Position numbers and translations under genes: made by a program. A stretch of 64,000 bases of DNA from an uncultured delta proteobacterium (lineage in GTDB: Bacteria > Desulfobacterota > RBG-13-43-22). Below the pieces are notes generated by a model. That model was not told the origin of the DNA. It did not search any database and saw only the letters and a program-made list of their open reading frames with translations. The stretch spans positions 480,001 through 544,000 of the forward strand of contig CAWBOS010000015.1 of assembly GCA_963790475.1 (NCBI GenBank). Reading direction: 5' to 3'. Below are positions 6,891-48,187 of this stretch, piece by piece; positions within the stretch are counted from its first letter, which is position 1; every line of letters starts with the position of its first letter.

Positions 6891-7002
6891 ATTACGAGAT
6901 TATCAGTAACAACGCTATCCCGAAATTAAACTTTCTTAAGTTTCGATCCGAGCTTACTTAAAACTTTATTTGCCGGAGTAATATTTCAAAGGAGGTTCAT
7001 CC

Positions 7003-9975: not shown

Positions 9976-10084
9976 TATCAGTTATTTACTGATATTATTA
10001 TGGTAATAATTTGTTAATATTATTTTCAGGCAAACCCCGTCCTAGAGCTCCTCTGAACATGAATTTCATTTAAACCAGTATAAT

Positions 10085-10315: not shown

Positions 10316-10434
10316 TAAAATAATGGACAGTTGGGTTAGTGACTATGACCGCTAGGGGAAAGGATTTTTTACCCAGGAAACGATGTTGGTATTAAAAATT
10401 TAGCAAAAAGAAAAAATAAAAATATAGGAGGAGG

Positions 10435-30316: not shown

Positions 30317-30359
30317 AAAAATCCCTCTTAAAATGTGATATACAATCGTATATATCACA

Positions 30360-30650
30360 TTGGCCCTTGTCAATAAAAAACTACAAGGTTATTTTTTAAC
30401 AAATTTATACGCTTTAAAGGAAAAATTTGGCAACTCCCTAAGCTTACTGGGGACATACCCATCGCACCCCGGGCTTCATTTGGAACGGATTATCAATGAC
30501 CCTACAGCCTGGTCGGCAAGGATTGATCGGCGCCTTCGCCTTTCTTTCGATCCGCAACAGTTTTTGCCGGCCGGTAATCCAGACTGGTCGGCCCCTCTAT
30601 CGCTTCTACGTATCCTTGACCATGATGATTTGTATAAACACCCTAGATAA
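30360..30650 (+). CDS. RelE-like toxin, possibly truncated
   Basis: PSHPGLHLERI....WSARIDRRLRLSF...HDDLY. Confidence 0.5.
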   Translation: MALVNKKLQGYFLTNLYALKEKFGNSLSLLGTYPSHPGLHLERIINDPTAWSARIDRRLRLSFDPQQFLPAGNPDWSAPLSLLRILDHDDLYKHPR

Positions 30651-32170: not shown

Positions 32171-32546
32171 TATTTCTTTTTTTTGCCTGGACCTTTAGTG
32201 TCCATTGTAAATTGATAGGCAACAAGCCGGTTCTATCCAGTGGAGGAGGAGTTATTTTGAAAAATCAGAGCATAGCAATGCAAACCTGATGTGTCTTTTT
32301 TTTTGGAATTTCAAAGATCCGTTGGCCTAATTTCGGTGACCCATTCTTCTTGACTAATTTTTTTTAAAATTCATTTTATCAGCGGTCCTGTAGGCATCAT
32401 ACATTCCCCAAATCCACAAAATCGGAGTCGTTATAAAACCTACCAGGACATACATAAGCAGGATAGAAATACTGTAGGTTACAAACATCAAAATGCCTTT
32501 GAGTATTTGTCCGTTATAAATCTGTCTAAGACCACAATAGAAAAAA

Positions 32547-33997
32547 GGCCGCATCCGGCTTTTTCATGGGTATCCCCAATATGTTGTGTTTATTGAGGTT
32601 TGAATCTTAATGTTGGACAAGTTGGCTGTAGGGGAAATAACTTCAATCCACCACAATGAAAATATATTGCTGTTCGGTAGTGGGATCGATTTCGAAATCC
32701 ACAGGCCAATCGCTTGACCTTTTCTATTTTAGCATTGATACTTTCTCCCAGAGCATTGGTGATTCGATGTCTGGCATAAGTGACGATATTGTCGATATGA
32801 GTTTTTAGAGTATTGGCTGCTTTGATGACCGGGGCTAACCGTGAATGGGTTGCCCAAAAATACCATCGCTGAAAATAATGACGCATATGCGCCTCATAAC
32901 GGTAATCCCACAAATGTCGAATGTTTTCTTTAATAGCCCAAGCTCGGCAAACGCGCAGATCTTTCATCCGAAGCGTTTCAAATTCTTCTCTTCTCCATTC
33001 CGGAATATTCTCTTGACTCCACAACCACAGATACTTGGTCCCCTTCAGCACGGCCTCTCCTTGCTCGGAAAGCAATCGATGTTCATTCTTTCTCACTTTA
33101 TCCACGGCTTCCAGAACGTACTTCATGATGTGAAAACGATCAAAGACGATCTTTTTTTCCGCTCCAGGAATATAGGCCTTGGTGGCCGCAATATAGGGAT
33201 CCCACATGTCCATAGCCACGGCCTGGACTCCGGCCAACTCCTCATGGCTAAACTGCTGATAATAGCTTTCCAGACTTTCCTGTTTCCGATCATCAATAAC
33301 GTACTCAACCGTTCCGTTGTCCAGGTCATATACCAAGGATTCATATTTATGTCCTCGGGCAATAGCCTTTTCATCCACCCCAATACGGGACGGTATGCGA
33401 TGCTCTTTCCGGGACAATCCCCTGATAACAGCTCGTTCCAATGTATTCCAGCTCTGATCCCAGCTCAGACTGCACAGCCTGCCGGTAGCCTCAATACTGC
33501 ATTCTCGGGCTATTCGAATAACAAGGCTTTCAAAGGCATAGGTCATTTCCGAACCATTTTCTCCGAGTTCAGAAGTAATCTGTTTAACTCCATGATCAGG
33601 ACAATTAACCCGAGGCGTCCGAACATGAATATAGGTGGCCATCTGGCAGGTGTCCAGATGCCGATAAATTCTTTCCGGACTATGATCATAAACCCCATAA
33701 AACTGATCACACTCCGGGCATCTTACTTGTATGTCCTTTTCATGATCAAGATAGATGTCCACCCGTTGCTCCGCTTCATTAAGAATCACCCTGGTGATCA
33801 TCCAGGGGGGATGCAGTCCCAGCAGTTTGTAAAAAAAGGTCTTGTCGTCCATCCCTCTTTCTTTGCTAAAGTCTTTATGTTTTATTTTTTAATAAAAAAG
33901 CGGCTGCGAGAATGGGCCCCTAAACGGCTCGTCGGAGCAGTCGTCTTCCATTGTACCACAACATGTTGGGGGCACCCATGAAAAACCCGGGAGCCCC
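32547..33997 (-). mobile_element. ISL3-family insertion sequence
   Basis: ~41-bp imperfect terminal IRs (GGCCGCATCCGGCTTTTTCATGGGTATCCCCAATATGTTGTG / GGGGCTCCCGGGTTTTTCATGGGTGCCCCCAACATGTTGTG); 7-bp DR GAAAAAA at 32540-32546 and 33998-34004. Confidence 0.9.
32590..33852 (-). CDS. ISL3-family transposase
   Basis: CPEC zinc finger, GVDE, MDMW..Y, FDRFH, TNALGESIN.KI...KR.A.GFRN motifs. Confidence 0.95.
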   Translation of the reverse strand: MDDKTFFYKLLGLHPPWMITRVILNEAEQRVDIYLDHEKDIQVRCPECDQFYGVYDHSPERIYRHLDTCQMATYIHVRTPRVNCPDHGVKQITSELGENGSEMTYAFESLVIRIARECSIEATGRLCSLSWDQSWNTLERAVIRGLSRKEHRIPSRIGVDEKAIARGHKYESLVYDLDNGTVEYVIDDRKQESLESYYQQFSHEELAGVQAVAMDMWDPYIAATKAYIPGAEKKIVFDRFHIMKYVLEAVDKVRKNEHRLLSEQGEAVLKGTKYLWLWSQENIPEWRREEFETLRMKDLRVCRAWAIKENIRHLWDYRYEAHMRHYFQRWYFWATHSRLAPVIKAANTLKTHIDNIVTYARHRITNALGESINAKIEKVKRLACGFRNRSHYRTAIYFHCGGLKLFPLQPTCPTLRFKPQ

Positions 33998-34074
33998 GAA
34001 AAAAGAAAGAACCGCAGCTACCCCAGGATTCTTCATAAAATATCCTACTTCTCAAAAATATCCTATCTGGTTGG

Positions 34075-35199
34075 TTAATGTGGGATACTAAAATCATTTG
34101 ATATTGTCTTAATAATATCAGACACTTTAGTTACAGAAATATCAGGATAATAGATATCTGGCTTAATGCCTTTTCCTACACGGGAAATATTGTCAGGGAG
34201 ACGGATGGCAAGGGTGGTCAACCAGAGTTCCCCTCCCTCGGAAAGGGGAAAAATCGTCTGTGATACGAATTTACCAAAACTCTGTTCCCCTGCCACGTGA
34301 GCTAGTTTGTAGTATTGTAAAATTCCGACGATAATTTCTGCGGCGCTAGCGGTACGACTATCGATGAGCAACCATACAGGATTGGAAAGTTTTTTCCCTT
34401 GTGGCGCCCGATATGTTTTAACTACTCCAGTGCGATTATACGTACTGGCTAAACGACGGCCTGCGGGAACAAACAACCCTGCAACATCCAGGGATTCATA
34501 AAAATCGCCCCCGGAGCATCCGCGGAGATCAATCACAACCCGAGTGCCAGGTCGGACCAGCGTTGTGCACAGGGCAGACAGGCTGGGCGCTGTGTCATGG
34601 GAAACAAAATTCCTTATGCGCACAATAATATCAGTGCCTATGCGGTTCCATGTTATCGAAGATGGCCGATATGGAACAGGCATAATCTTGTAATTTTTCC
34701 CTTTGCTTTCCGGGGAGGTGGAAACGGTAAGTATCACTCGCTCCTCTTGTACTGCTCTATCAAGTAAGGATGAAATCCTGGATAAATTATCATTTTCGAC
34801 ATTTATGTTATTGATTGCCAGCAATAGGCCAATTTCAGGAATCCCGGCCTGGTCTGCAGGTCCGTTGGGGTCCGATCGTATCCATAATCTGGATTTATAA
34901 GCAAAAACTTCCATTCCCAAATGAAAGGAGGAAGATGAATTTCCTGGGTAGAAGGGTGGTGGAACATAGCGGGCGTATGGATCGATCGCAAGCAAACCTG
35001 TCGCTAAATGGTTGGTGTCCAGTGCTGCCAGTAATTTGGCGGACGGTGGCCGCAAGGACTTTTTAGCAATGATTGAACGTAGTTCAACAATGGAGGGAGC
35101 TGGCTGTGCTACTGACACAATAAGCGTCAAGTCAATTGTGGACAATAGAAGCAAAATTGCCCATGACTTTGAACACAAACCAATATTAACGTGACGCAT
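34075..35199 (-). CDS. S41 family (tail-specific) peptidase
   Basis: DPY..Y, IDLRGCSGG, TASAAE, GEQSFGK and GIKPD motifs; ATG at 35199 overlaps the upstream stop. Confidence 0.85.
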   Translation of the reverse strand: MRHVNIGLCSKSWAILLLLSTIDLTLIVSVAQPAPSIVELRSIIAKKSLRPPSAKLLAALDTNHLATGLLAIDPYARYVPPPFYPGNSSSSFHLGMEVFAYKSRLWIRSDPNGPADQAGIPEIGLLLAINNINVENDNLSRISSLLDRAVQEERVILTVSTSPESKGKNYKIMPVPYRPSSITWNRIGTDIIVRIRNFVSHDTAPSLSALCTTLVRPGTRVVIDLRGCSGGDFYESLDVAGLFVPAGRRLASTYNRTGVVKTYRAPQGKKLSNPVWLLIDSRTASAAEIIVGILQYYKLAHVAGEQSFGKFVSQTIFPLSEGGELWLTTLAIRLPDNISRVGKGIKPDIYYPDISVTKVSDIIKTISNDFSIPH

Positions 35200-35731
35200 C
35201 GGAAAGGGCTTGCAAATATTTGACCAACCTCCTGTACTCTTCAGCAAGGCGATCTCTTTCCCTCTTGAGCATTTGGTAGCGACCAGGGTCAGCAGCACTA
35301 CCACCAGCGCGATCCAATTCGGCAAGAGCGTATTGCTGTGATTTTAATCGAAGTCGATGATCTTCAATCTTACGGTTTAGTATGGCTATTTCAGATTTCT
35401 GCTTATCAGATTTAGCATTAAGCTGTTTTATGTCAGACTCCAGACTGGAAAGATCCGCCTCCATCTTGGCCATATGTTCCTGTTCCGATGCGAGCGCAAG
35501 GTCACGATCCTGAGCGGTGCTTTGCAAAGTCTGGGACTGTTCATTTAAATCTTGGTTGAGGCGCTGCTGACCTGACAATTCTTCCTGCCGCTGGTGAATA
35601 CGGGAGTCATAGGCACCTGTACTAAGACCATGCAAGCCTCCAAACAGTCCGCCCTTTCTGGGGTCGTTGCTTACTGCACAGGCTGTCAAGGTAATTGAGA
35701 GTAAGAGAGTGATCACAAACCATCTACACAT
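35186..35731 (-). CDS. Coiled-coil lipoprotein
   Basis: Lipobox LTAC; DPRKGGLFGG; heptad-rich body. Confidence 0.75.
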   Translation of the reverse strand: MCRWFVITLLLSITLTACAVSNDPRKGGLFGGLHGLSTGAYDSRIHQRQEELSGQQRLNQDLNEQSQTLQSTAQDRDLALASEQEHMAKMEADLSSLESDIKQLNAKSDKQKSEIAILNRKIEDHRLRLKSQQYALAELDRAGGSAADPGRYQMLKRERDRLAEEYRRLVKYLQALSDASR

Positions 35732-35733
35732 AA

Positions 35734-36408
35734 CTATCTCCTCACTTTAAGCGATTCAACCAGTTGCGCCATTTGTTTATTGTTACTATCGAGCAGTGCA
35801 ATATTATTTCTTAATGCACTGACTTCCTGATCGAGTTTTGCTACATTCGACTGGCTCTGCGTTTCGCTGATGCTTTTCTGATACTCGGTCAGTGCAATCA
35901 ATTCCTTGCTTTTATCGTCTTTGATTTTATCAGCATCTCTAATCAACTTAATAATTTGACCTTGTTTATTTTTCAAGGCAATCTCCGTAACCCTTCTTGC
36001 CTTATAGAGGGATTTGAGGTTAGAAATTTCTTTGTCCAGGGTATTGATCCGATTGGTTGTTGCCACATTATATTCTTCCAATTGTTTGTTATATTGCATG
36101 ACAACTTGGATCTCGCCATTCAGACGATCCTCCTCATTGGCATATTTCTGCTTCCGATCTGCGACCGTACTTCCTATTGCATAACCTGTACCAGCACCTA
36201 GAAGCCCGCCGATGCCCGCTCCTATGGCTGCCCCCTGTTTACCACCCAGAAGGGCGCCGGCGACGGCGCCTGCTGCAGCTCCAACTCCTGCGCCTAGCAA
36301 TGTTCCCTCCGTTTTGGTTCGGGTTGCATCATTGCTTATGTTAGCACATCCTGAAAACATTGCTAATACAATACCCATGGCTATCAGTTTATTCAATATC
36401 CGCATCAT
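35734..36408 (-). CDS. Glycine-zipper lipoprotein with coiled coil
   Basis: Lipobox FSGC; GAGVGAAAGAVAG...GAAIGAGIGG. Confidence 0.8.
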   Translation of the reverse strand: MMRILNKLIAMGIVLAMFSGCANISNDATRTKTEGTLLGAGVGAAAGAVAGALLGGKQGAAIGAGIGGLLGAGTGYAIGSTVADRKQKYANEEDRLNGEIQVVMQYNKQLEEYNVATTNRINTLDKEISNLKSLYKARRVTEIALKNKQGQIIKLIRDADKIKDDKSKELIALTEYQKSISETQSQSNVAKLDQEVSALRNNIALLDSNNKQMAQLVESLKVRR

Positions 36409-36441
36409 GACGTCAAGCTCCTTTGTTGGTATGGTATAAAA

Positions 36442-37434
36442 TCAGTCAACAAAATTGTTAAAACGATGTGTGAAATTCGAGAGCATTTTTACTGGATCAG
36501 GTTTAGGGTTGTTGCGCAAGTCATTCACATGACTGGCAAGCAACTCGGCAACAATCTTTTCACGAGGTGCTGGGTCTCCGTTCTTGATTGTATCCATTGC
36601 ATAGGAGACCTGTTCAGGCGTATAACGACCAAGTTCAAGGACTTTGTTGACATAGGCCATCAGGCTTTGATCTCTTGCGTTTCGTGCATTGCTAATCGTA
36701 CTTTCTGCAGATACCACCTGGTCCTGATAGCGGGGGGAAATCGCCTGCAATTGTTTTGCGGCTTGAAGCACCTTCTCGAACTTAGGCAGATTGCAAATCG
36801 TAACTGAAAGATTAGTACCCTGGCGTAGCGCCTCCAACGCTAAAATGCGGGCAGTCTCACGTTTAGAATCTCCTTGTGTAGTCGGTACGGGTGGAGTCGG
36901 AGGGGGAGAAGGAGCTTTTTCAGTTCCACCTGTTCCAGGGGCATACCCCTCTGGGGGGGGCTTGGGTTTATCACGGATGCCAAAATAGACAACAATAACA
37001 ACTAACAATAGGATAGCAACCGCCGCCCATTTCCATTTTCCCCAAATTGCATTACCCTTAGATATAGGGCTATCTATCGGTAAAGATCCATCCTTGAGTT
37101 TTGTCGTTGCGGGTATAGGTTCAGCATGTGATCCTGCCGATTTATTCTCCTCTGAGAGTATTTTCTCCGTATCTGTATTCGGTGTATCGTTTGGAGGTTC
37201 AACATGCTTTTTGGAAGGCTGATTCTCTAGTGAAGGGCTTCCAGGGCTAGCCATCCCAACACTGGCTTCCTCCAAGACCTGTTCCCGAGTTTGCCCGGTA
37301 TCGCGCAACTCGCCAGTCGCTTTTATGACTGGAACGACCACTATCAGAATACCGCAGTAAGGGCAATATGTTACCGGTCCATACAGAAACTTACCGCAAG
37401 CTCGGCATGAAACGGGGTAAGATTGCTCAAGCAT
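36442..37434 (-). CDS. Zinc-ribbon single-pass membrane protein
   Basis: CRACG...CPYCG, disordered linker, TM helix, Pro-rich linker, helical C-terminal domain. Confidence 0.7.
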   Translation of the reverse strand: MLEQSYPVSCRACGKFLYGPVTYCPYCGILIVVVPVIKATGELRDTGQTREQVLEEASVGMASPGSPSLENQPSKKHVEPPNDTPNTDTEKILSEENKSAGSHAEPIPATTKLKDGSLPIDSPISKGNAIWGKWKWAAVAILLLVVIVVYFGIRDKPKPPPEGYAPGTGGTEKAPSPPPTPPVPTTQGDSKRETARILALEALRQGTNLSVTICNLPKFEKVLQAAKQLQAISPRYQDQVVSAESTISNARNARDQSLMAYVNKVLELGRYTPEQVSYAMDTIKNGDPAPREKIVAELLASHVNDLRNNPKPDPVKMLSNFTHRFNNFVD

Positions 37435-37539
37435 GAGGGATTATGTCCTTTATAGACCTAAGGCCGATATTCCTACCCATGCCGTCTTGAGCAATAAAAA
37501 TATTTGCCTGGGTTCTTCTCATCGTGTTCTCATGCTCAT

Positions 37540-38031
37540 TTACTTAAATGCGGTTTTCCTGGTAATCCTGACTTTGTTAGAGGGCACATTTTTCATAGAT
37601 ATTTCCTGTTTAGCGCGACGTTTTGTGCCATCTCCCTTGATGTCAGATTGTTTGTATTGGTCTGGTTTATAAAAGCCACTAACCAACTCTTTTTTCGTAT
37701 GTTTTTGTGGAATTCCCATATTCTTTTTATATGTATTCTCACTTGGCGTCGGGCCTTTCAAGTGCCCGGAAAACAAATACTTACCTTTTTTTATTCCTTT
37801 TTTGCTTATATTTTCTCCAGGATTGGTAGCCCTTGTAAACGGCCGCCATCTTCCGCTATTCCTTGTTTCCGCTTTTTTCATTTCGACTTTATTCTGTTTC
37901 AAGTTCTCTTTTCCGGTTTTTGTCTCTCCCTTGCAGTAAGCAATTTCCGACATTGGGAAGATCAACCCGATTACCATACAGGATATAAAAGTTAGGAGTT
38001 TTATGTCCCGATTAAAGCCTTTTCTGCCCAT
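37540..38031 (-). CDS. Lys-rich hypothetical exported protein
   Basis: AGGAGG RBS, N-terminal hydrophobic stretch, low complexity. Confidence 0.5.
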   Translation of the reverse strand: MGRKGFNRDIKLLTFISCMVIGLIFPMSEIAYCKGETKTGKENLKQNKVEMKKAETRNSGRWRPFTRATNPGENISKKGIKKGKYLFSGHLKGPTPSENTYKKNMGIPQKHTKKELVSGFYKPDQYKQSDIKGDGTKRRAKQEISMKNVPSNKVRITRKTAFK

Positions 38032-38103
38032 AATTGCCTCCTGGAATCAGTAGCTTGGTATTATAAACGTCCATGCTGATCTACGCGAACCATTCCTGCG
38101 TCA

Positions 38104-41100
38104 CTATACCGTTGGAAGCGGTGGTGGAACCACTCCGAATACAGATGCTATCCCGGCCACAGTTGATGCAGCCGCCCACGAAACCATCCCATCCATCCAG
38201 ACCAATGAATCTTTCGTCAACTGACCTGAGTATACCATTTGACGTAGGATGGGCATATCGAAAGGGCCAGCTTGTTGACCATTCACTGCCACAAATACCT
38301 GGATTTGCTGCTGCGGAAGCGGCGGAGGCCCACCCGGCAAAGTGCCCGCCTGCACCTTTGGCTGTTGCTCAGCCACCACAGCCTGCGGTAGTTTCCAGCC
38401 CGGTTGTAATACTGCATTAAGTAACACTCTCTTGGTCTGGATATTACGCATATTGACCTCATATTGATAAACATCCGAAGCTGACTTGGGGATCTCGATC
38501 GTCCAATCGTGCACCAAATCACTAGCTGTCCGCAACAAACGTTCAGCTGTTCCCTGCCCTAACTTCAGCTCCAATCTCCTGGTCCAATCCTCCACCAACT
38601 TCTCGCACATCAAGGTTGGGAGTGATTTCCGATCCACGTCTACTCCATCACTCCGGAATGTCGCTATGGGGTAAACCGACGATGCATAGTACTCAAGTAA
38701 TGCAATCCACATCGCAAGTTGGTCCGGTGAATTTAATTTTTCCAGATCTTCATCAACCTGTTCCTGTATAATGGGCCGATACACCTCCGGTATTCCGATA
38801 AGCCGGAGTTTTTTCTCATCACCAATTGATTGGGTTCTGCCACGCTTCGTCACACTGTAAAGACCCGCATCCTCCCCTCTCTCTGTGCGTTTAAGCACAC
38901 CCAAAGCGACCGCCTGTACGAATAATTTAAAGTCCTCGGCGCGGGAGGACAATTCATCGAGAGTCAATTCACGGGCATGCACAAATGTACTGGTTGAGCG
39001 ATGGGTATGAACCGGAATTTTATCCTCGCTACGATAGCTGACATACCACTGATCTAATGACTTTAGGGATGGTAACGGTAATCCGGATAGTTCCGTATAG
39101 CAAACCACCTTACCTGGCGTGTCTATATCGACAAATCCGACTTCCTTAGCAGTCATCATGGTCATTGGAGGCAAACGATTCAATAGCAATTTTCCATACT
39201 TGTCCTCAAATTTTTTGGCGTCCTTCACACCGATAAGGCACTTATATTGATCTTTAGGGTTCTGCGGTTTAAGGTAGCCCTCAACCTTTGCTCCCACCCA
39301 CGGCATGGCACGCTGCAGAAAGTCGGTAAACAATTGTGACAGACTTGCATGATTTGCATACTCATCCAAAGCAGCGAACAGAGGGTTCTCTTCATCAGTC
39401 TCCGCATCCCCCCCAATTAGGCTAAGCGCACGGTTGCGAAGCTTGCTCAGAAGCTCGGACCGGCCATCGTCCTCCTTCAACAACGAAAAGAGTTGTTGAG
39501 TTCCTCCAAAATCCTGGAAGGCTTCTTCAGCCCATCGGCGTGCCTGGTCTCGCGGCAATAGTTCCAGTCCATCAAGTCGGCTTTTCGGCGCTGGCAAGAC
39601 AAAGTACATGGCATGACCCTGTTTCATCGCCTCATTGGTGCGGGCAATCTGATCCTCCGCATCGTTAATGATTGCGCGTACCAAGCTCCGCCCTGTTTCC
39701 ATCTCACCAATAAACCCGCCCCAGATAGGGTTGCCATCGGCATCAGTCCCTTGTTGCTTGCCCAAAGCTTCCGATAGGGCATGCACAAGCACTGCTGCCT
39801 CACGGCTTGCTGCGGCATACAGGTGGTAGCGCACATACAATTTGACCGCTTCGGATATCTGCTTGAGCTTCATCTCAGACTGTGTTTGCGCGGATGTCCA
39901 TTTGCCGGTGGCTTGCAGCAGGTGTTCTTGCAGTCTTGCTGTTTCCTCATTGCGTAGCAAGCCCGATAGATCAGAGAACCATTTTGCGTTTTCTTCAAGA
40001 GCCTTAACAATCCCAGTGTTTGCGTTTTCCAGCCTGTCCTTAATACGCTGGATAAGCTCTATCGTATAGTCAAGGCCTCCTCGTTCTTTATTGTCCACTC
40101 TCATCCATAGTGCCCTTAGCAAACCATGGTCTGGAGTGGGATCAAGTAATTCCATAAGCATCTCTGTGCGACGCTTACGAATTGCATCCTCATGAAGACC
40201 ACTGCCTGATTCCACAGCTTTAAAAGTATCATGATTAATATTAGTGAGAGCTTCTGCTACTTTCGAAGGCCACTCCTTGTAGTTACCGCCGGTTCGAATT
40301 TCTTCAAAACGATCAACTATCCGTTTCTCCACATCGTCCAATTTGGAGATGCCATTTACCCTCAGAAGTTCCATGGCCAAGGGATATGTGGTGCGTTCAG
40401 CGCCCTTTTTGTAGAGATCGTTTTTGACAACGAAATCGTAATCGATAATTTCATTATCCACGCCAAGATGCATTCGGTTAGCCAGGATATCATCTCGCTC
40501 ACCCTCCGTTGGGATATTGCTTTTGGGATCGTCGGATGCTACACCAAAAAAAGCCTTTAGCATCCCATTGACTTGACGGAACAACAGAACGTTTTTTTTC
40601 TGCTCCAGGTGAGTGTCTATGGTCGCTTGAGCGAACGATGAGAATGCACGGGAAAAGGTAAGACTCATATCACCGTAAGTTTCCTTCGGCAATGGCATCT
40701 CGTAAGGGACAATCTTGTATTGATTCTGATTGACCGAAATCGAGCGCTTTCTGTTTGCGAAATCCGCCGTCGAGAAATCCTCAAACAGGGAATCGGCAAT
40801 CATGTCGTACAGGTCTTTTATATCACCAGTTTTGGCACCGGCGAGGTTGGCCGTGTCGAGAAGATAGACATCACTGTATGGAGAATTTGACATATCGCGT
40901 GGTATTTCGCCTGCGGTCCACTGTTTAATGTAAGACGACCCTTGGCGCATGCAGGTCTCTAATTCCATCAAAGCGGCATAAGTATTCGCTTCCGTACGCG
41001 TTAAACCCGCCCCTTTGTAACCCGACGGCAGCATGAGTACCAGATTGGTCGTCACGCCTTGATTGGCAGCATCCCTACCAAGCCATCCGGAAAGATACCC

Positions 41101-41745
41101 TAAATCCAAAAAGCTTCCAGATCCGGTACCACCGGCTGTCGAGGCAACCACAACAATTTTGAGTGCGCCTATCTGTACTCTGAAGCCTAAACGTTTTTGT
41201 GCCAGATCTGATTGAACGTTATCCAACAAAGAGTCGGCTTTTGAACGAATGGCGCTCTTTATTTCCTGGTATTTATCAAAAAAATAGAGTCTGGAAATAG
41301 CGCGGATCTGCCCCGCGCCTTTCTCTGGATCAATGTTAAGCTCATTTATAGTTTTCCGGGACAGCGGGAACCACTCTTTAATCAGTGGATAACGATCAAG
41401 ATCCTCATCGCTTTTTGTGTATTTGTTAAGATCCAGCTTTTTGACAAGCTTTTCCGATTCCTTAAACTGTACCTTGTTAGCTAATATGTCACTTTTTTGA
41501 GCAATCCCCTGTTCAGTTTCAAAGGTACTCAAATCAATATAGAGGAACTCAGCAAATGGGAACTCGGTAAGGCTTTCAAGTCGTACCGAATTTCCTGTTC
41601 CGGCGCCCCACAAAGTGTTCAGAATTCGTCTCCGAATCCTCCAAAGAACCTGAGCTCCGGTTCCCCCTAAAGCGATAAACAATGTAGGCACCACCTCCGT
41701 AAGTATAACTTCGGTTTTCTTCCCTTCTTTTGATTCTTCTGCCAT
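38104..41745 (-). CDS. Tubulin/FtsZ-like (Tubulin_2/FtsZl1-type) GTPase with C-terminal GYF_2-like domain
   Basis: IALGGTG, GAGQIR and AGGTGSG signature motifs; long helical region; C-terminal NGQQAGPF...LVWMDGMVSW flanked by PPPLP. Confidence 0.85.
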   Translation of the reverse strand: MAEESKEGKKTEVILTEVVPTLFIALGGTGAQVLWRIRRRILNTLWGAGTGNSVRLESLTEFPFAEFLYIDLSTFETEQGIAQKSDILANKVQFKESEKLVKKLDLNKYTKSDEDLDRYPLIKEWFPLSRKTINELNIDPEKGAGQIRAISRLYFFDKYQEIKSAIRSKADSLLDNVQSDLAQKRLGFRVQIGALKIVVVASTAGGTGSGSFLDLGYLSGWLGRDAANQGVTTNLVLMLPSGYKGAGLTRTEANTYAALMELETCMRQGSSYIKQWTAGEIPRDMSNSPYSDVYLLDTANLAGAKTGDIKDLYDMIADSLFEDFSTADFANRKRSISVNQNQYKIVPYEMPLPKETYGDMSLTFSRAFSSFAQATIDTHLEQKKNVLLFRQVNGMLKAFFGVASDDPKSNIPTEGERDDILANRMHLGVDNEIIDYDFVVKNDLYKKGAERTTYPLAMELLRVNGISKLDDVEKRIVDRFEEIRTGGNYKEWPSKVAEALTNINHDTFKAVESGSGLHEDAIRKRRTEMLMELLDPTPDHGLLRALWMRVDNKERGGLDYTIELIQRIKDRLENANTGIVKALEENAKWFSDLSGLLRNEETARLQEHLLQATGKWTSAQTQSEMKLKQISEAVKLYVRYHLYAAASREAAVLVHALSEALGKQQGTDADGNPIWGGFIGEMETGRSLVRAIINDAEDQIARTNEAMKQGHAMYFVLPAPKSRLDGLELLPRDQARRWAEEAFQDFGGTQQLFSLLKEDDGRSELLSKLRNRALSLIGGDAETDEENPLFAALDEYANHASLSQLFTDFLQRAMPWVGAKVEGYLKPQNPKDQYKCLIGVKDAKKFEDKYGKLLLNRLPPMTMMTAKEVGFVDIDTPGKVVCYTELSGLPLPSLKSLDQWYVSYRSEDKIPVHTHRSTSTFVHARELTLDELSSRAEDFKLFVQAVALGVLKRTERGEDAGLYSVTKRGRTQSIGDEKKLRLIGIPEVYRPIIQEQVDEDLEKLNSPDQLAMWIALLEYYASSVYPIATFRSDGVDVDRKSLPTLMCEKLVEDWTRRLELKLGQGTAERLLRTASDLVHDWTIEIPKSASDVYQYEVNMRNIQTKRVLLNAVLQPGWKLPQAVVAEQQPKVQAGTLPGGPPPLPQQQIQVFVAVNGQQAGPFDMPILRQMVYSGQLTKDSLVWMDGMVSWAAASTVAGIASVFGVVPPPLPTV

Positions 41746-41778
41746 ATTTCAACCTCCTATAAGGTTTGCCGCGCTCAA

Positions 41779-42189
41779 CTATTTCTTGGATGCCACCACA
41801 AAAGCTATTACAAAGCAAATGAGCGAAAGAACTGACAGCGCTATAATCAGTGGCATCGTCATATAAGTCTTGCTAACCAAGGCTGTGCAACCAATAGCCC
41901 CGCCGAAGAACAGGCCTCCAAAAAGGCCCCATCCAGCCATTCCGGCATTGTTCGGTGATCGCTTCATACTTGAGCCGGTTAGATAATTTACAAAGGAAAT
42001 ACGAATAAAAAAGAACACTATCGCCAATACCAACAATGCACCGCCCCCAATCATTATATCTTTAGACGTGGGGCCAACCACTATCTCAGGGCCGGTCGGT
42101 ATTTGTTGGATTTGACTACTACCTTGTTGAGGTGTTTCCGGTGAAGAAATGGGGGGCAATGCAGGACTGTTTTGATCAGCCATGGTCAA
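41779..42189 (-). CDS. Three-TM membrane protein
   Basis: Pro/Gln-rich N-terminus and three hydrophobic helices. Confidence 0.7.
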   Translation of the reverse strand: MTMADQNSPALPPISSPETPQQGSSQIQQIPTGPEIVVGPTSKDIMIGGGALLVLAIVFFFIRISFVNYLTGSSMKRSPNNAGMAGWGLFGGLFFGGAIGCTALVSKTYMTMPLIIALSVLSLICFVIAFVVASKK

Positions 42190-42238
42190 TTCTCCTTTGA
42201 TTTTTCTATTATATTTACGATCTTCAACTCTTAATGTT

Positions 42239-43735
42239 TTACATCACTCGCACACTACAATTCTTTCCTTTATCCAATATAGGGACAGGTTTTCCGAATC
42301 CACGCTTGAGCACGCCAACTCGTTCACCCTGCGAATTTTTTATCACTGCGTCAGCAAATGGCCTTAACCCATAGGATTTCTGTGTACCATCAACTGATAC
42401 ACGGTAGATTTTTTCACGACGCAGAACGACTATCCCAGTAATGGCTGTTCCAATAATCAAAAGAAATAATACGCCAATTACAATGGCTGGCCAACTTGGA
42501 TACACGACCTGAATAAGCAAGGGTTGCATCGTCACAGAATTTTTAGCGGACACTCCCGGGACAAATAAATCAGGCAAAGGATCATTTGGAAAAAGGTCAG
42601 ACATTGCCCTGACGAAGTCCCTGGAAATTTCCAGGTGTTGATCCTTCAGTTCGAATCGGATTATCCCATTTGCCCGATACCCCGCGCCAAAAATAACCTC
42701 CGGACTCCAGGGAGATGGAATTGGCGGCACGCTAATTTTTACCAGGATATCTGAAGACAGACCGGCAGCAGGAATATTGGAGATTTTGTCAGTGGAAAGT
42801 TGTGAGGTAATTCCTTCTTTGCCTCCTCGGAACCCGGAAGTCATTGCGACGCTAGCCGAACGAATATCATAAGGAAAGAAATCATTGCGAAACTGCCCGA
42901 TGATTTCCGCGACCTCCGGCTTGCTTGCGGCGTCAAAGCTCAACACCAGTGTCTTGTGGTCAGGCACGCTTGCTTTGACGTTGTTGCTTCCCTTGACACC
43001 TTTGGGAATAAAAGTCAGTGCCTCAGCATTCAGTGGTTTAAGCCTCGCGGCTTTCTTGCCAAACGGCGCATTGACGGAAATCATCTGCTGAAGAAGCTGA
43101 TCTGCCGCGTCACCATAGGCCAACGCATATATCATCAACCCATTAGCATGAAAATTTAACTGGGAGCGGCTCTGGACCTTCGAGGGGTAAGGAAAGGCAA
43201 CAATGCGCTTAATTTCGGCTGAGTCCTGGAGGAAGTGATAAAACTCCTTATTCTTTTCAACCGTTTCGGGACTATTGTCGGGGCTGTTCTTGTTATTAGT
43301 CACAATCCATAGCAAGCAAGACTTCCCGGGAGAGAAATTGCTAATTGCTCCAATAATCGCCTCCTTAAAATCAGTATCCGCATAGGTTGTCCTGCCCGGC
43401 TTGTGCGCCGGCTCAATGGCCCGTATTGCCTCGTTGATCTTGTTCTGGTCGTTTCCCTTATAGTACAAACGGGGGGACTTGTTTTCCCCCCAAGTTTGGT
43501 TGAAACTTGCAACTACCTGCTGTTCACCACCATATTTACGGACGCGATCAGAAAGTTCTGCAACGATGTCTTTCAGCCGCGAACCCGGATCATCATAGAA
43601 GGGCAGCATCCAACCCGAATTCTGCACCAGAAATACTTGTGGGACAGATGATGCAGCCCACAGCGGCGCACTACTGCACAGCAAGGTGATTACCACAAAA
43701 ACAAAAGATCGAAAGGCCGTATAAATTCCGGACAT
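42239..43735 (-). CDS. Exported vWA-like domain protein with C-terminal TM
   Basis: Signal peptide; FLVQNSGWM / DTDF / IVTNN resemble a degenerate MIDAS; TM near residue 415-440. Confidence 0.55.
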   Translation of the reverse strand: MSGIYTAFRSFVFVVITLLCSSAPLWAASSVPQVFLVQNSGWMLPFYDDPGSRLKDIVAELSDRVRKYGGEQQVVASFNQTWGENKSPRLYYKGNDQNKINEAIRAIEPAHKPGRTTYADTDFKEAIIGAISNFSPGKSCLLWIVTNNKNSPDNSPETVEKNKEFYHFLQDSAEIKRIVAFPYPSKVQSRSQLNFHANGLMIYALAYGDAADQLLQQMISVNAPFGKKAARLKPLNAEALTFIPKGVKGSNNVKASVPDHKTLVLSFDAASKPEVAEIIGQFRNDFFPYDIRSASVAMTSGFRGGKEGITSQLSTDKISNIPAAGLSSDILVKISVPPIPSPWSPEVIFGAGYRANGIIRFELKDQHLEISRDFVRAMSDLFPNDPLPDLFVPGVSAKNSVTMQPLLIQVVYPSWPAIVIGVLFLLIIGTAITGIVVLRREKIYRVSVDGTQKSYGLRPFADAVIKNSQGERVGVLKRGFGKPVPILDKGKNCSVRVM

Positions 43736-45312
43736 TACCCCTCCATCAATTCAAGTGGCCAGCAGAAACAGTCGTTTCTTTCTGGAAAATATACATACAA
43801 TGAGTCGCCATAAACAAAGGCCGAAAGTTCAGGCAATTGTGATAGCCCAACACGGAACAAACTGCCGCCAATCCCACCATGAACCCCATCCACTCCATCT
43901 GCATACAAGGCTTTTTCTGAAACACCAGAACCTTCAACGACAAATCGCACGAAAGTAGTAATTCTTAAATCACGTTTGAAGAAGATATCTGAGAACAATC
44001 CCAATTCATCACGTCCCTCCCAAGGGCTCACTTTGGCGATCAATGCCAAGCCCTTTTCACCGAACTGAAGAAGCGGAAAACGCAATTCTCTATGTTCACT
44101 TATTCTTGGATTGCGTTTGTGAATATCATCCCAGTAATCATCACTCCAGGAAAAACTCGCTCTGCCAGTCGTCACAAACTGGCCACAATCAACATTCTCA
44201 GCATCAATTCTTGAGTCCCCATCCAGCTTGATGATTTTATTGACTATTCCATCTCGTACCGAATAGTCGCGATCCTCACAGAGTTGCCAGAATCCAGAAT
44301 AAGAACCGGTTCTGTGATAGGGTGGACCCAATTCAATGAGCGCAATTGCAGGATGCTCATCGGTTTCCCACGGCCTGAATTCCCAACTCAAGCCGGCTGC
44401 CGAATTAGCGCCAAAAACCCGGACATATCCACCACGGCCAGGCCAATACACAATCTGCTTGTTTTCATCAATGATAGGAATGCCGAAGTAGGCATCGTAG
44501 CCAGAACTCCCACGTAACTGTGGAAACACACACGAAGGATCACAGACTGAACAACATTCAGACCAGGTTATATCGCCCTCTTTCCTGCTGACCATCGCGA
44601 AATTATCTCCGCGCAATACTGGCGCCAACAGATATTTCCCAACGCGTATGGCGCCACCGACCGAGCGCCCTACAGCTTGGTCAACATTAATGCTACTGGA
44701 GGCCCAATTAACAGTTATCCACACAGGGCCTTGGTCAGTAGGGAGACACAAGCCAGATTCTGAAGAATCGCCCGCCAGAGACCACGACCAAGCGGGAAGT
44801 GTATCTTCTCCCGCGTTCCCGATTAGCACTTCCCATTTTTTGGTTTCACCCGGACGAAATATCCACAATTGCCCACTGTCTCTCTGCACCGCTACCAGCA
44901 AACGTCGTTGACCCCCTAATTTAGCTGAACAAAATGCAAAGCGACCATCTCGAGAAGGCAATGGGAACGGACTAGCCTGTTCATTATACGTTCCCGGCTT
45001 ATTATTGTGTATCGATCTTATTGGAAACAATTTCAAACCGTTCCCTGTACCATAAGGAGGAAGCCATAAGTCAGCTACACTGTCATTTGCATCCAACAAA
45101 ATAGAGCCACAATAAGGACAGTTCTTAAATTGAGATGGGAACACACTCTGGTCACAGGGTACCCCCGAGATAGGATGACTTTTCGCCCCAATCAACATAC
45201 AAAGCGGTGCAACCGGCGCTGCCTCGCACTTTTGCCCGAAGATGCTTTGAATTTTGAATGTTTTAGAGTTCTCATCTTGCTCCCAAGATGAATCTTTAAA
45301 CGGCCACAACAT
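43735..45312 (-). CDS. Hypothetical Trp-rich protein with zinc-ribbon-like motif
   Basis: GGAGG RBS before ATG at 45312; CPYCG; stop overlaps the next start. Confidence 0.65.
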   Translation of the reverse strand: MLWPFKDSSWEQDENSKTFKIQSIFGQKCEAAPVAPLCMLIGAKSHPISGVPCDQSVFPSQFKNCPYCGSILLDANDSVADLWLPPYGTGNGLKLFPIRSIHNNKPGTYNEQASPFPLPSRDGRFAFCSAKLGGQRRLLVAVQRDSGQLWIFRPGETKKWEVLIGNAGEDTLPAWSWSLAGDSSESGLCLPTDQGPVWITVNWASSSINVDQAVGRSVGGAIRVGKYLLAPVLRGDNFAMVSRKEGDITWSECCSVCDPSCVFPQLRGSSGYDAYFGIPIIDENKQIVYWPGRGGYVRVFGANSAAGLSWEFRPWETDEHPAIALIELGPPYHRTGSYSGFWQLCEDRDYSVRDGIVNKIIKLDGDSRIDAENVDCGQFVTTGRASFSWSDDYWDDIHKRNPRISEHRELRFPLLQFGEKGLALIAKVSPWEGRDELGLFSDIFFKRDLRITTFVRFVVEGSGVSEKALYADGVDGVHGGIGGSLFRVGLSQLPELSAFVYGDSLYVYFPERNDCFCWPLELMEG

Positions 45313-45770
45313 TTTGTTTTCCTCCAAACCTATGGAGATTGTCACCAGGGAGGCTTCCTGTTATCGCCTCCTGGCTTTCATCTCCTTAAAAATGGACTTA
45401 CACTGGAGATCAAATCAGGTTGGGAGGGTGCTCAACAACCTCCCCTTCTTTAAAAATTTCACACAAAATATTGACAGTGTCATCACAATGATTAGTACAT
45501 CTCAAGAAATTAAATCACACTTGAACTTCAATTTTATGTCGTTTTCAGTTATCTTGGCTACTACTCCATATATGTGCCCATTTTCCTGAATAACAACTCA
45601 ATAATACAGCGTGTCAGGTTTCATGTTGCTCAGGAAACACTATGTTTTTTCAGAAAAAGATAAAGTTTTTCAAGAGTGATTGAGTACTTATTTGCGACCA
45701 CTCCCCTGCTTTGTGATTCATATTTCTTAACAAGTTAGTGGGCGGAGGGTTCTTTCCGTTTTAATCTTTA

Positions 45771-46145
45771 TCATTGTGAATTCTCAATAATCACGGTCAA
45801 GCTCTTATCTCCAATGGCAAACGCATTCTTAACCTCACCTCTTATGGTCACCTCTTCCCCCGTTTTGGGAAAGGTCTTCGATGGGATAACTGCAATTGCC
45901 CCGGTTTCATCCGCGATCATGAAATAGCCATGCCCAAAAACGATGAACGACTTTGTAACATTACCTTTGACGTGCACTAATCGGTCTCCATATTGGGTAG
46001 GTGAAGCAAGAATGTCAGTAATTTTATCCGTCCTTGACAAAGGACTATCTGTGCAGGCGGGCAGTAACGAAAACAAGATAAACGTAAGAATAACGCTGAG
46101 TCCCTTAAATGGGAGGTTCATCGTCATCATATACTTGCAACTCAC
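45771..46145 (-). CDS. OB-fold-like lipoprotein
   Basis: LPAC lipobox; I.DIL..P..Y....V.V.G.V...DETG.I.V; start probably slightly internal. Confidence 0.6.
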   Translation of the reverse strand: MSCKYMMTMNLPFKGLSVILTFILFSLLPACTDSPLSRTDKITDILASPTQYGDRLVHVKGNVTKSFIVFGHGYFMIADETGAIAVIPSKTFPKTGEEVTIRGEVKNAFAIGDKSLTVIIENSQ

Positions 46146-46639: not shown

Positions 46640-46849
46640 TTAATCTTCAACATCTCGGGAAATATTTGTTTTTATTTTTCCCCCGATTGGGGTCTGAAAA
46701 TATTCCGAAGAGAGTTTCCCTTCTTTAAGTTGCCCCAAGACTTTTTCAAGCTCATGAGTTAGGTTAAGGCATTCCTTTCCCTTGACTCCTTTGACCCTGA
46801 AAGCGACTTTACCCTTTGTTTGAATGGTTACTTCTACTTCCTCCGACAT
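46640..46849 (-). CDS. DUF2997-like protein
   Basis: MSEEVEVTIQTKGKV...GVKGKECLNLTHELEKVLG; GGAGG RBS. Confidence 0.7.
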   Translation of the reverse strand: MSEEVEVTIQTKGKVAFRVKGVKGKECLNLTHELEKVLGQLKEGKLSSEYFQTPIGGKIKTNISRDVED

Positions 46850-46860
46850 AAACAGTCCTC

Positions 46861-47252
46861 CTATAGGTCTCCAATGGTCAGTTTTTTTAGAACCAAACGA
46901 ATATCCCCTCTCTCGGTCCTCCGTTGAAATATCAGGGAAAAGCCTTTTTTTGCGCCTCCAGAAGAACCTTGCGACGGGCATATCCTGATAGATTTTATCA
47001 ATCAGGTTTTTTGTTTCCTTTTTTTCAAGGCTTTCCCACATACCAAGAATCTCATAAGCCGCTGCGGGAGAAGTCTTTCTGAATCCCAGCTTAAGCCCTC
47101 CCTTCCAGGTTATATCTAAATCGACAGGCTTTGAGGACCCCAGCGATTTAATATAACCCCCTTTGATAATCGGAATGTTTAACCCCTTGTAGGGTTTCAA
47201 TCAAAATATCCTGGTCTCTAATCTCTGTCTTTAAGGTGGTCAGATGTGACAT
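46861..47252 (-). pseudogene. DUF1257 (Ycf35-like) frameshifted gene
   Basis: Starts MSHLTTLKTEIRD after AGGAG; continuation needs frame changes (LGFRK...YEILG.W...; GDIRLVLKK). Confidence 0.65.
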
Positions 47253-47490: not shown

Positions 47491-47775
47491 TTGGGGATTT
47501 ATGGTGGCCATTTCCGGATATCGATATATTTCTGGGAGGCTGGAAAGAAGGTCAAACCTTTTGGGTTCCATGGAATTAGGCATTTGACTGTTTCGATACT
47601 CTATCAGAAAGGATACCCCTTATCAGTTATTCAGACCATATTGAGACATGCGAGTCCGAATACAACAGCCCGTTACATACATAGTCTTGGATTGGAAGAA
47701 ACAAGAAGGGCGCTTGAAGAAGGTCTTAAAGAACCTGGTCAAGTGATTGAATTCAACAAGGAGAGTGTGGCATAA
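47491..47775 (+). pseudogene. Tyrosine recombinase/integrase C-terminal fragment
   Basis: FHGIRH...IQTILRH....TTARY; adjacent to the tRNA-Glu 3' end. Confidence 0.85.
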
Positions 47776-47849: not shown

Positions 47850-47927
47850 TGGCGTCCCCAACGGGATTTGAACCCGTGTTGCCGGCGTGAAAGGCCGGTG
47901 TCCTGGGCCAGGCTAGACGATGGGGAC
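47850..47927 (-). tRNA. tRNA-Glu (TTC)
   Basis: GTCCCCATCGTCTAG...CTTTCAC...GGTTCAAATCCC...GACGCCA cloverleaf. Confidence 0.96.
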
Positions 47928-47933
47928 TTGAAG

Positions 47934-48009
47934 TGGTGGGCCGTGCTGGACTTGAACCAGCGACTCTCTGCTTAAAAGGCAGATACTCTACCTCCTGAGT
48001 TAACGGCCC
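47934..48009 (-). tRNA. tRNA-Lys (TTT)
   Basis: GGGCCGTTAACTCAG...CTTTTAA...GGTTCAAGTCC...CCCACCA. Confidence 0.96.
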
Positions 48010-48014: not shown

Positions 48015-48156
48015 GAGAGCTTTGGAAAATGTTCCCTTTTGCTCAATCTCTGCGTCAGACTCAAATTTTAATCCTCAAAATACTAAATGTATTCCTGTGG
48101 TTAAAATTATCCTCTTCCTTGACCTTGAACAAAATTGGATATTTTTCAAAGCTCTC
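48015..48156. repeat. ~140-bp MITE-like repeat, copy 2
   Basis: Terminal IR GAGAGCTTTGGAAAAT / ATTTTTCAAAGCTCTC; homologous to 5529-5656. Confidence 0.8.
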
Positions 48157-48187
48157 ATTTAAACAATAAGCTTTAAAGGAAAAATTC

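Follow-up and report, generated by a model that had tools for sequence, protein, structure and literature searches.

The 64,000-nucleotide (nt) stretch of DNA analyzed here, referred to as the window, comes from an uncultured delta proteobacterium (GTDB lineage Bacteria; Desulfobacterota; RBG-13-43-22) and corresponds to positions 480,001 to 544,000 of the forward strand of contig CAWBOS010000015.1 in assembly GCA_963790475.1. At positions 34075-46145, it carries a cluster of minus-strand genes, which we label g01 to g10 in transcription order and which is centered on g05, a tubulin-like protein of the FtsZl1/Tubulin_2 family. An initial annotation made from the letters of the sequence had described ten co-directional genes with several overlapping or abutting junctions and had quoted a number of motifs in their products. 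All ten open reading frames (ORFs) were verified at these coordinates, and the motifs (GGTG, GGTGSG, PPPLP flanking the GYF domain, QNSGW, and the zinc ribbons) are all readable in the translations. The genes are as follows, with protein lengths in amino acids (aa) and TM denoting transmembrane.

45771-46145, minus strand: g01, 124 aa; putative OB-fold lipoprotein, neighbor
43735-45345, minus strand: g02, 536 aa; zinc ribbon and beta-propeller, predicted to be cytoplasmic; core
42239-43735, minus strand: g03, 498 aa; vWA-like domain, two Ig-like domains, TM helix, and cytoplasmic tail domain; core
41779-42189, minus strand: g04, 136 aa; small membrane protein with three hydrophobic segments; core
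38104-41745, minus strand: g05, 1213 aa; FtsZl1/Tubulin_2 and GYF_2 domains, with ~750 aa of conserved body; center of the module
37540-38031, minus strand: g06, 163 aa; small Lys-rich protein; accessory
36442-37434, minus strand: g07, 330 aa; zinc ribbon-TM protein; core
35734-36408, minus strand: g08, 224 aa; Gly-zipper lipoprotein with a coiled-coil C terminus; core
35186-35731, minus strand: g09, 181 aa; coiled-coil lipoprotein with an LTAC lipobox; accessory
34075-35325, minus strand: g10, 416 aa; exported S41/PDZ C-terminal-processing peptidase; accessory

Genes g02 to g10 form a tight nine-gene operon that consists of a six-gene core and a recurrent three-gene add-on (g06, g09, and g10). 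The stop and start codons of g02 and g03 overlap by 1 nt (TAATG), the intergenic gaps from g03 to g08 measure 33 to 105 nt, g08 and g09 are spaced by 2 nt, and g09 and g10 overlap by 14 or 140 nt depending on the start of g10, which is uncertain (ATG 35199 or TTG 35325). The ten-gene unit originally proposed is therefore reduced by one member, since g01 is separated from g02 by 425 nt and recurs in none of the related loci searched; it is probably a neighbor and not a part of the module. The gene called an OB-fold lipoprotein is present as described, the OB fold itself being read from sub-threshold matches to Pfam and NCBIfam. In scans against these two databases, g01, g02, g03, g04, g06, g07, and g09 match no family above cut-off, and the ten proteins contain no kinase, FHA domain, or second GTPase, as had been claimed, and likewise no P-loop GTPase, Ser/Thr kinase, OmpA-domain protein, or FNIII family. 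The assignment of three TM segments to g04 and the lipoprotein calls (lipoboxes LTAC, FSGC, and LPAC) are by-eye readings of the sequences, made with no predictor. A promoter and terminator scan returned 20 promoter-like sites against 19.8 expected and is uninformative.

Conservation of a six-gene module across related loci

A first sample of one genome per species yielded nine loci in which the g05 homolog is 63-81% identical, and a metagenome scan with the family alignment added 52 loci. The order g02-g03-g04-g05 is kept in eight of the nine genome loci, the ninth of which is just 2.6 kb long, and ORF clustering of these loci revealed two further recurrent families of variable position, one g07-like and the other g08-like. 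Hidden Markov models of the six families were searched against six-frame translations of 31 g05-bearing loci, leaving out L031 (same place as L005) and L052-L083 (short fragments or distant Tubulin_2 genes). Among loci with enough flank to hold the respective gene (for g07, those with at least 1.5 kb downstream), the g04 family is found in 26 of 28, the g03 family in 24 of 26, the g02 family in 20 of 22, the g07 family in all 22, and the g08 family in 15 of 19, counts that overstate the independence of the loci. Gene order persists down to 33-46% g05 identity. The six-gene module is kept together over deep divergence, and the expectation that homologs of the tubulin-like gene occur with these partners, and in a conserved order, is borne out by six families that nearly always accompany it and three more that do so in a subset of loci. 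These three are g09 and g10, which always appear together and follow g08 in four further loci (L003, L035, L044, and L047), and g06, for which a 49%-identical homolog is found in L044 only, in the same position between g05 and g07.

The module is sharply bounded, because the flanks of the long loci switch directly to housekeeping genes, among them those for G6PD, 3-dehydroquinate synthase, riboflavin synthase, MgsA, and a dicarboxylate symporter. A tblastx comparison revealed no similarity between the window sequence 3' of g10 and that 3' of the S41 gene in L003, L035, L044, and L047. A distant arrangement lies on plasmid p2 of Azospirillum sp. TSA2s (L030; NZ_CP039644.1, 175071-196607) and encodes a full-length g05 homolog with 28% identity; its surroundings hold three genes of the caspase family, three of the OmpA family, two DUF4384 genes, and a PEGA gene. 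Other metagenome Tubulin_2 operons (L075 8076-16213, L077 1001-8914, L063, and L057) follow a different recurrent layout, in which a canonical vWA protein and a protein of 300 aa are combined with a ~920-aa Tubulin_2 protein and with a Peptidase_C1 (papain-family) protein of 1150 aa, the last being replaced in L057 by an HSP70-like protein of 945 aa. A zinc ribbon/propeller-like protein of L057 was considered as a g02 homolog and rejected (hhalign, 0.4%), the resemblance being architectural at most. Tubulin_2 genes repeatedly have different peptidases near them, namely, the S41 enzyme here, caspases on the Azospirillum plasmid, and papain-type proteins of 1150 aa elsewhere, and this recurrence deserves follow-up under any reading of the module.

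The tubulin-like protein and its partners

Within the tubulin superfamily, the FtsZl1/Tubulin_2 proteins form the branch that has diverged most. The description of g05 as a giant tubulin-like GTPase with a GYF_2 tail is upheld by matches of residues 22-388 to Tubulin_2 (PF13809; E 7.3e-52, 177.2 bits versus a cut-off of 27, profile positions 1-347 of 356) and of residues 1151-1197 to GYF_2 (PF14237; E 4.5e-15, 55.6 bits versus a cut-off of 25.8). The glycine-rich nucleotide-binding loops T1 and T4 read GGTG (residues 27-30) and GGTGSG (residues 205-210), and both GGTG and the longer AGGTGSG (A204-G210) are invariant in 22 g05 homologs with identities down to 39%; conservation spans the whole 1100-residue body and extends beyond the GTPase domain. 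An Atlas search with the middle region returned only other Tubulin_2 clusters (0.77-0.80), which we regard as a lead. The gene is single-copy in the genome that holds the window, where Tubulin_2 membership was confirmed, and genome G041 carries the tubulin-like gene twice, in separate copies (L031 and L032). The protein is not the division protein, because canonical FtsZ is also present in all five carrier genomes tested.

The GYF domain of g05 is flanked on both sides by PPPLP, the second copy forming a terminal tail, and a PPP(L/P) tail ends the protein in nearly all GYF-bearing g05 homologs. Tubulin_2 and GYF_2 are both present in 101 of the best 120 among more than 140 homologs; in the remainder, the C-terminal module is absent or replaced by zinc ribbons or SHOCT. 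Where the C terminus is swapped in related loci, the 1100-residue body is kept: L003 and L044 have three tandem zinc ribbons, L047 has one zinc ribbon, L034 has a SHOCT-like helix, and L037 has an excisionase-type helix-turn-helix (HTH) domain. In PDB searches, GYF is the one part of g05 with a solved relative, the corresponding domain of GltJ (7z3c), which is matched with E 1.3e-4 by the protein and 5.1e-10 by the profile.

The partner g03 was previously described as an exported vWA-like protein with a noncanonical metal ion-dependent adhesion site (MIDAS). Its AlphaFold2 model (local confidence score pLDDT 87.6) begins with an N-terminal hydrophobic helix, read as a signal peptide, and continues with an alpha/beta domain at residues 33-220, two beta sandwiches spanning 230-411, and a TM helix at 415-439, after which a small beta domain (442-497) makes up the 57-aa tail, predicted to be cytoplasmic. 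Foldseek matches are dominated by Ig-like sandwiches; the vWA domain of Rpn10 is matched with a probability of 1.0 and a root-mean-square deviation of 3.2-3.3 over only 106-109 columns, and integrin beta is matched weakly (probability 0.35-0.44). In place of the MIDAS, g03 has the set QNSGW/TD/TN, with QNSGW at residues 38-42; Q38, N39, S40, G41, and W42 are invariant in 36 sequences. The g03 family is small, comprising 219 clusters in a profile search of 1.84 billion representatives.

The link to canonical vWA domains is made by distant relatives. Four of the ten distant relatives match VWA_2 below threshold, over the whole model and in the N-terminal domain, and one of these, P0432 (E 2.3e-5, 25.4 bits versus a cut-off of 27), aligns with the g03 family at an hhalign probability of 99.4%, pairing DHSGS with QNSGW, TD with TD, and TD with TN at the end of strand 4. 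Judged by this alignment, g03 probably has a vWA-type domain with a replaced metal site, because its QNSGW falls on the canonical DHSGS of P0432, and the earlier description stands by virtue of this bridging relative. The invariant QNSGW represents a natural experiment in how a vWA domain may change its mode of ligand binding. A 989-aa protein, P0375, was considered as a natural g02-g03 fusion and rejected; its similarity to g02 ends at profile position 450 of 533 and is followed by ~90 dissimilar residues and then by the g03 signal peptide, which is most likely the result of a frameshift or a gene-call artefact.

The description of g02 as a Trp-rich zinc-ribbon protein is confirmed by a CPYCG motif and 3.4% Trp, and is extended by an AlphaFold2 model (pLDDT 87.5, predicted template modeling score 0.89) that places a beta-propeller after a short zinc-ribbon region and finds WD40/PQQ-type propellers in Foldseek (E about 1e-5). 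The protein lacks a signal peptide and probably starts at Met12 (45312), and its 96 homologs are all named hypothetical and have no Pfam domain. A complex prediction of g02 with the g03 tail (residues 438-498) gave a score of 0.00 versus a mark of 0.32 and weighs neither way. In the family alignment, g04 has a conserved LPP motif in its N-terminal tail and a KRSPNNAG..AGW loop; the idea that its second TM segment forms a glycine-zipper pore was dropped, since the GxxxG run is confined to a close subfamily. The Lys-rich character assigned to g06 was verified (17.8% Lys), its N terminus is hydrophobic, and it matches no family in Pfam, NCBIfam, or PADLOC.

An N-terminal zinc ribbon (CxxC...CPYCG), a long Pro/acid-rich linker, one TM helix, and a C-terminal helical domain make up g07. 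All that its homologs have in common is their general layout and a C(x2)C/H...CP(F/Y)CG ribbon at the N terminus; their C-terminal domains differ and often contain paired cysteines, which are typical of periplasmic domains, and in beta-proteobacterial homologs, the periplasmic domains read by eye as helical/TPR-like. The g07 zinc-ribbon profile finds only generic zinc ribbons in the PDB, that of GltJ not being among them. The glycine zipper attributed to g08 is reflected in matches to Gly-zipper Pfam families at about their cut-offs; a YiaD-type N terminus scores below cut-off, the likeness being limited to the Gly-zipper N terminus of YiaD-type OmpA lipoproteins, and the C-terminal domain varies between loci. 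That the g07 and g08 homologs of L002 carry the same beta-rich domain suggests that the g07-type inner-membrane protein and the g08-type lipoprotein may pair across the periplasm. Only weak matches of coiled-coil type were obtained for g09.

The assignment of g10 as an S41 peptidase is secure (Peptidase_S41; E 5e-28, 98.1 bits versus a cut-off of 24); PDZ_6 scores below cut-off, as does TIGR00225 at E 1.7e-28. The motifs TASAAE and FGKxxxQ, 25 residues apart, are those that we take to hold the Ser/Lys dyad of this family. Prc-NlpI and CtpA-LbcA each combine an S41 protease with a lipoprotein adaptor, the adaptors being TPR lipoproteins. The arrangement here is similar in that an S41/PDZ protein directly follows the lipoprotein g09 and that the pair recurs in four loci, and differs in that g09 is a coiled-coil protein rather than a TPR protein and that the pair is an add-on in a minority of loci.

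Relation to known systems and a proposed mechanism

Co-occurrence of FtsZl1/Tubulin_2 and vWA proteins, which the initial annotation noted, has been in print since 2010. Makarova and Koonin (PMC2875224) predicted FtsZl1-vWA operons with membrane partners and proposed a role in membrane remodeling; by the main text of that description, the majority of these operons encode a vWA protein with an intact MIDAS (DxSxS), and frequent partners are a P-loop GTPase, a Ser/Thr kinase, and an OmpA-domain protein. The cluster described here is a sharply defined variant of these operons. It shares with them a divergent tubulin that carries a long C-terminal extension and whose gene neighbors those of an exported or membrane vWA protein and of further membrane proteins (here, g03 sits two genes upstream of g05), and a host genome that also encodes canonical FtsZ. 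Unlike them, it has a fixed six-gene set with a propeller, a three-TM protein, a zinc ribbon-TM protein, and a Gly-zipper lipoprotein; QNSGW replaces the MIDAS; the P-loop GTPase, kinase, and OmpA domain are absent; and the tubulin-like protein ends in GYF_2 and poly-proline. The main text of the 2010 paper makes no mention of a propeller, a GYF domain, or a zinc ribbon, and its supplementary families B1-B9 may overlap with those described here. Our search of full-text literature found no experimental or in silico description of the Tubulin_2-GYF_2 architecture or of the six-gene set, and no experimental work on FtsZl1/Tubulin_2 since the 2010 description.

From their sequences, g02 and g05 are predicted to be cytoplasmic, g04 to be integral to the inner membrane, g03 and g07 to be bitopic inner-membrane proteins, each with a small cytoplasmic and a large periplasmic domain, and g08, g09, and g10 to be periplasmic or anchored in the outer membrane, so that the predicted locations run from the cytoplasm to the outer membrane, as the initial annotation had proposed. 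The reading that we favor, and hold tentatively, is that the module is an envelope surveillance or remodeling device and constitutes an accessory, strain-specific trait. It would operate as a GTP-switched scaffold under a trans-envelope receptor complex. We envision that g05 would assemble beneath the inner membrane in a GTP-dependent manner, that the g02 propeller would nucleate or cap this assembly, and that the cytoplasmic faces of g03, g07, and g04 would hold it at the membrane, with the GYF domain and the poly-proline tail serving to cross-link or autoinhibit it. On the periplasmic side, the vWA-Ig ectodomain of g03 may bind its ligand without metal, which we propose because the metal site is replaced by the invariant QNSGW, and g07 and the lipoproteins would link the complex to the outer membrane. 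An envelope event, either a ligand or a mechanical state, would in this way be tied, in one direction or the other, to how far the cytoplasmic polymer is assembled, via g03 and g07. In the variant found in the window, the S41 protease g10, with g09 as its likely adaptor, might trim or remove a periplasmic component as an optional step.

Several observations weigh against this device. Interaction, GTPase activity, and polymerization of g05 are predictions, and filament formation in particular is uncertain from its sequence, because no T7-type catalytic loop can be aligned with FtsZ and because T6-H7 elements were likewise not identifiable in the main text of the 2010 description of FtsZl1 (PMC2875224). 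Compared by hhalign with five FtsZ sequences, the g05 N-terminal domain had no match in global mode and reached a nonsignificant 1.3% in local mode, with the T1, T4, and T5 motifs lined up, and a PDB profile search with g05 found no tubulin or FtsZ. For g03, there is no Pfam vWA match above the gathering score (PF00092/PF13519), and a comparison of its N-terminal domain with six vWA domains of the same genome reached a nonsignificant 4% in hhalign, in which the TD and T(D/N) loops of g03 were aligned. The positive-inside rule would place the LPP tail of g04 in the periplasm, which makes it no obvious ligand for the GYF domain. The conservation counts include loci that are close to one another (L001 and L002 are nearly identical, and two further sets of close relatives are L038/L039/L045 and L042/L043), and the six parts are not all obligatory, because the Azospirillum plasmid keeps g02-like and g04-like genes without g03 and g08, and L046 and L047 are without g02. 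In the latter two loci, tandem g05 paralogs are found (L046 1679-8211 and L047 1145-8894), the first of which stands at the usual place of g02.

Plain membrane remodeling or vesicle biogenesis, as proposed in 2010, in which an FtsZl1-vWA system bends or partitions the inner membrane and senses nothing, is an unlikely explanation in our assessment. It would account for g05 being a clear FtsZl1/Tubulin_2 member near a vWA-type gene and for partners that are all membrane or envelope proteins, and the main text of the 2010 paper includes vWA proteins with signal peptides or TM segments and many lineage-specific membrane partners (PMC2875224). It is disfavored by the absence here of the frequent features, that is, the intact MIDAS, P-loop GTPase, Ser/Thr kinase, and OmpA domain, and none of the sequences bears directly on membrane bending. 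The paper's own reviewer considered that its data leave the choice between remodeling, transport, and signaling undecided. The same paper contains a reviewer's question as to how a cytoplasmic FtsZ-like protein works with periplasmic or outer-membrane partners (PMC2875224), to which the subtype described here offers a concrete, testable answer in the form of the bitopic g03 and g07, with their predicted cytoplasmic domains, and a dedicated cytoplasmic propeller, g02.

The layout of g03 brings to mind another parallel. In integrin beta, an extracytoplasmic vWA-type domain is followed by Ig-like domains, and a single TM helix leads to a short tail in the cytoplasm. Genes for g03, which shares this layout, and for a cytoskeleton-superfamily protein stand together here; unlike in integrin beta, the metal site of g03 is lost, the Foldseek match is weak, and homology is claimed for the vWA fold only. 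Bacterial receptor-to-cytoskeleton coupling, in which an integrin-like ectodomain and its zinc ribbon-TM partner signal to a membrane-tethered polymer of the tubulin superfamily, strikes us as quite improbable. Assembly of the polymer would be set by GTP, the beta-propeller cofactor, and self-interaction of the GYF domain with poly-proline, and the cassette would move between phyla as a unit. If true, this would give FtsZl1 its first defined role, as a tubulin-family signaling scaffold outside of division and DNA segregation.

The GYF match to GltJ raises the prospect of a trans-envelope machine for surface adhesion or motility similar to Agl-Glt, the focal-adhesion complex of gliding Myxococcus, with zinc-ribbon and GYF domains docking a GTPase/cytoskeleton platform to a complex that reaches outer-membrane lipoproteins. 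Such a machine is in our view the least probable of the explanations weighed here, and very improbable in absolute terms. The zinc-ribbon and GYF domains of GltJ dock MglA and AglZ and so connect a GTPase and cytoskeleton to the trans-envelope complex (PMC11761067); the GYF_2 domain of g05 belongs to the same family and has GltJ as its sole solved relative, zinc ribbons are present on g02 and g07, the beta-proteobacterial g07 homologs have periplasmic domains read by eye as helical/TPR-like, and outer-membrane lipoproteins are encoded. Unlike in GltJ, the GYF domain here is on the GTPase itself and the zinc ribbons are on other proteins; there is no TolQR/ExbBD-type proton-motive motor and no TonB-C domain, the GltJ equivalog NF033761 scores 30.9 bits versus a cut-off of 450 and over the GYF stretch only, the g07 zinc ribbon does not find that of GltJ, and the carriers include nongliding lineages.

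According to their database names, cultured strains of Pseudomonas, Stenotrophomonas, and Chlorobaculum parvum carry homologs. Because the module is compact, bounded, and present in these strains, genetics, imaging, and biochemistry are feasible, and the function of FtsZl1 is directly testable in a deeply conserved module carried by cultured bacteria.

Horizontal acquisition, defense context, and neighboring features

The claim that the cluster is mobile and sits next to a tRNA-integrase remnant agrees with what is found at its edges. Three features adjoin the operon.

47491-47775, plus strand: C-terminal remnant of a tyrosine integrase (PF00589 positions 120-168 of 172; E 7.7e-11)
47850-48009, minus strand: tRNA-Glu(UUC) and tRNA-Lys(UUU) pair (ARAGORN), at the edge of the variable region
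32555-33990, minus strand: ISL3-family insertion sequence (IS) directly 3' of the operon (DDE_Tnp_ISL3; E 1.8e-67)

The g05 gene was found in none of the 13 same-genus and none of the seven same-family genomes examined, and relatives that are 63-81% identical are found in other lineages. Horizontal acquisition of the operon is well supported by this negative result in 20 genomes, by the relatives in other lineages, and by the integrase remnant beside a tRNA. With a Pseudomonas-type g05 as query, nothing was found in 400 evenly sampled genomes from the phylum of G041 (two first-look candidates were scored per genome). Homolog records are named as Desulfobacterales, Chlorobiaceae, Chlorobaculum parvum NCIB 8327, Syntrophorhabdaceae, Sideroxydans, Sulfuricella, Hydrogenophilales, Pseudomonas, Stenotrophomonas, and the Azospirillum plasmid. 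Of the two loci with near-identical modules, L001 is labeled uncultured Bacteroidales and L002 Chlorobiaceae, their g08-like proteins being identical; at least one of these bin labels is doubtful, and claims of cross-phylum occurrence that are based on labels of metagenome-assembled genomes need care.

Synteny with two same-genus genomes stops at about 48181, and G+C content is slightly lower over 30-48 kb of the window. The far end of an island could be marked by a direct repeat of the tRNA-Glu 3' end, and a search for one found no copy of at least 13 nt; one inverted 13-mer of this 3' end is likely due to chance. A left border was sought by synteny in three same-genus genomes, where nothing in the 19-kb flanks of the tRNA pair apart from the tRNAs is shared with the window.

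A defense-island setting and a defense role, which the initial annotation had listed among its possibilities, are unsupported, and defense is one possible reading only. PADLOC returned only weak matches of coiled-coil type (g08 and g09) for the ten cluster proteins, nothing system-like in the 40 other window proteins, and no system-defining match in 66 flanking proteins of five long loci; PADLOC-DB 2.0 dates from 2023, and a newer system could be missed by it. A scan of viral contigs found no relative, and a search of phage collections found only a fragment match the size of the GYF domain.

These results bear on the idea that the module is an anti-phage or conflict system, in which the periplasmic vWA-Ig protein would sense an invader, the tubulin-like GTPase would act as a nucleoside triphosphate (NTP)-dependent threshold switch, and the membrane proteins or the associated peptidases would execute growth arrest or a change in the envelope. 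We judge this idea doubtful, a step below the surveillance or remodeling device. Its appeal lies in the rare, patchy, and strain-specific distribution of the family (none in 20 same-genus or same-family genomes and none in the 400 phylum genomes), the close relatives in distant lineages, the adjoining tRNA and integrase remnant, a g05 C-terminal adaptor that is exchanged among GYF, triple zinc-ribbon, SHOCT-like, and HTH forms, and the variety of peptidases near Tubulin_2 genes (S41, the three caspase-family genes of the Azospirillum plasmid, and papain-type giants). In Kaur et al. 2020 (PMC7159879), GTPase-tubulin-vWA neighborhoods are predicted to be conflict systems; the GAP1-N2 systems described there resemble the module in having a helically extended tubulin beside a membrane-bound protein with an extracellular vWA domain and in a predicted membrane-proximal, NTP-dependent action. 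They differ from it in that the module is without the GAP1 TRAFAC GTPase and the FNIII-repeat protein, and in that they are described in Firmicutes and Actinobacteria (PMC7159879), whereas the module occurs in diderm lineages with outer-membrane lipoproteins. Against a conflict role stand the lack of a PADLOC match beyond coiled-coil noise, the housekeeping flanks, the lack of a recognizable toxic effector, and the absence of the GAP1 GTPase and FNIII protein of the published systems.

Downstream of the operon, the ISL3 element has 34-nt terminal inverted repeats (32555-32588 and 33957-33990) and is flanked by ORF fragments at 33920-34051 and 32354-32563, which by eye resemble the two halves, N-terminal and C-terminal, of a small membrane protein of the TM2 type. 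The IS-split TM2-like gene of the initial annotation is accordingly supported as to the ISL3 element between two fragments, and the TM2 assignment is a by-eye reading, neither fragment having a Pfam match to a TM2 domain. A gene for a PIN-domain protein (E 1.3e-15) and an abutting upstream 98-aa ORF occupy 29703-30373 and possibly form a toxin-antitoxin pair, and a DUF2997 protein (E 3e-13) is encoded at 46640-47200, between the operon and the integrase remnant. To the right of the tRNA pair, a stretch of ~143 nt (48015-48160) is found at more than 20 places of the window's genome at 80-92% identity and recurs many times in further genomes of the genus, and looks like a dispersed element of the miniature inverted-repeat transposable element or repetitive extragenic palindromic type. 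Elsewhere in the genome that holds the window (G000), contig C1 contains four adjacent vWA genes (6127-10382; L011-L015) that recall Bat/MoxR-type clusters and have no relation to the module. Outside the features described, the window consists of metabolic genes.

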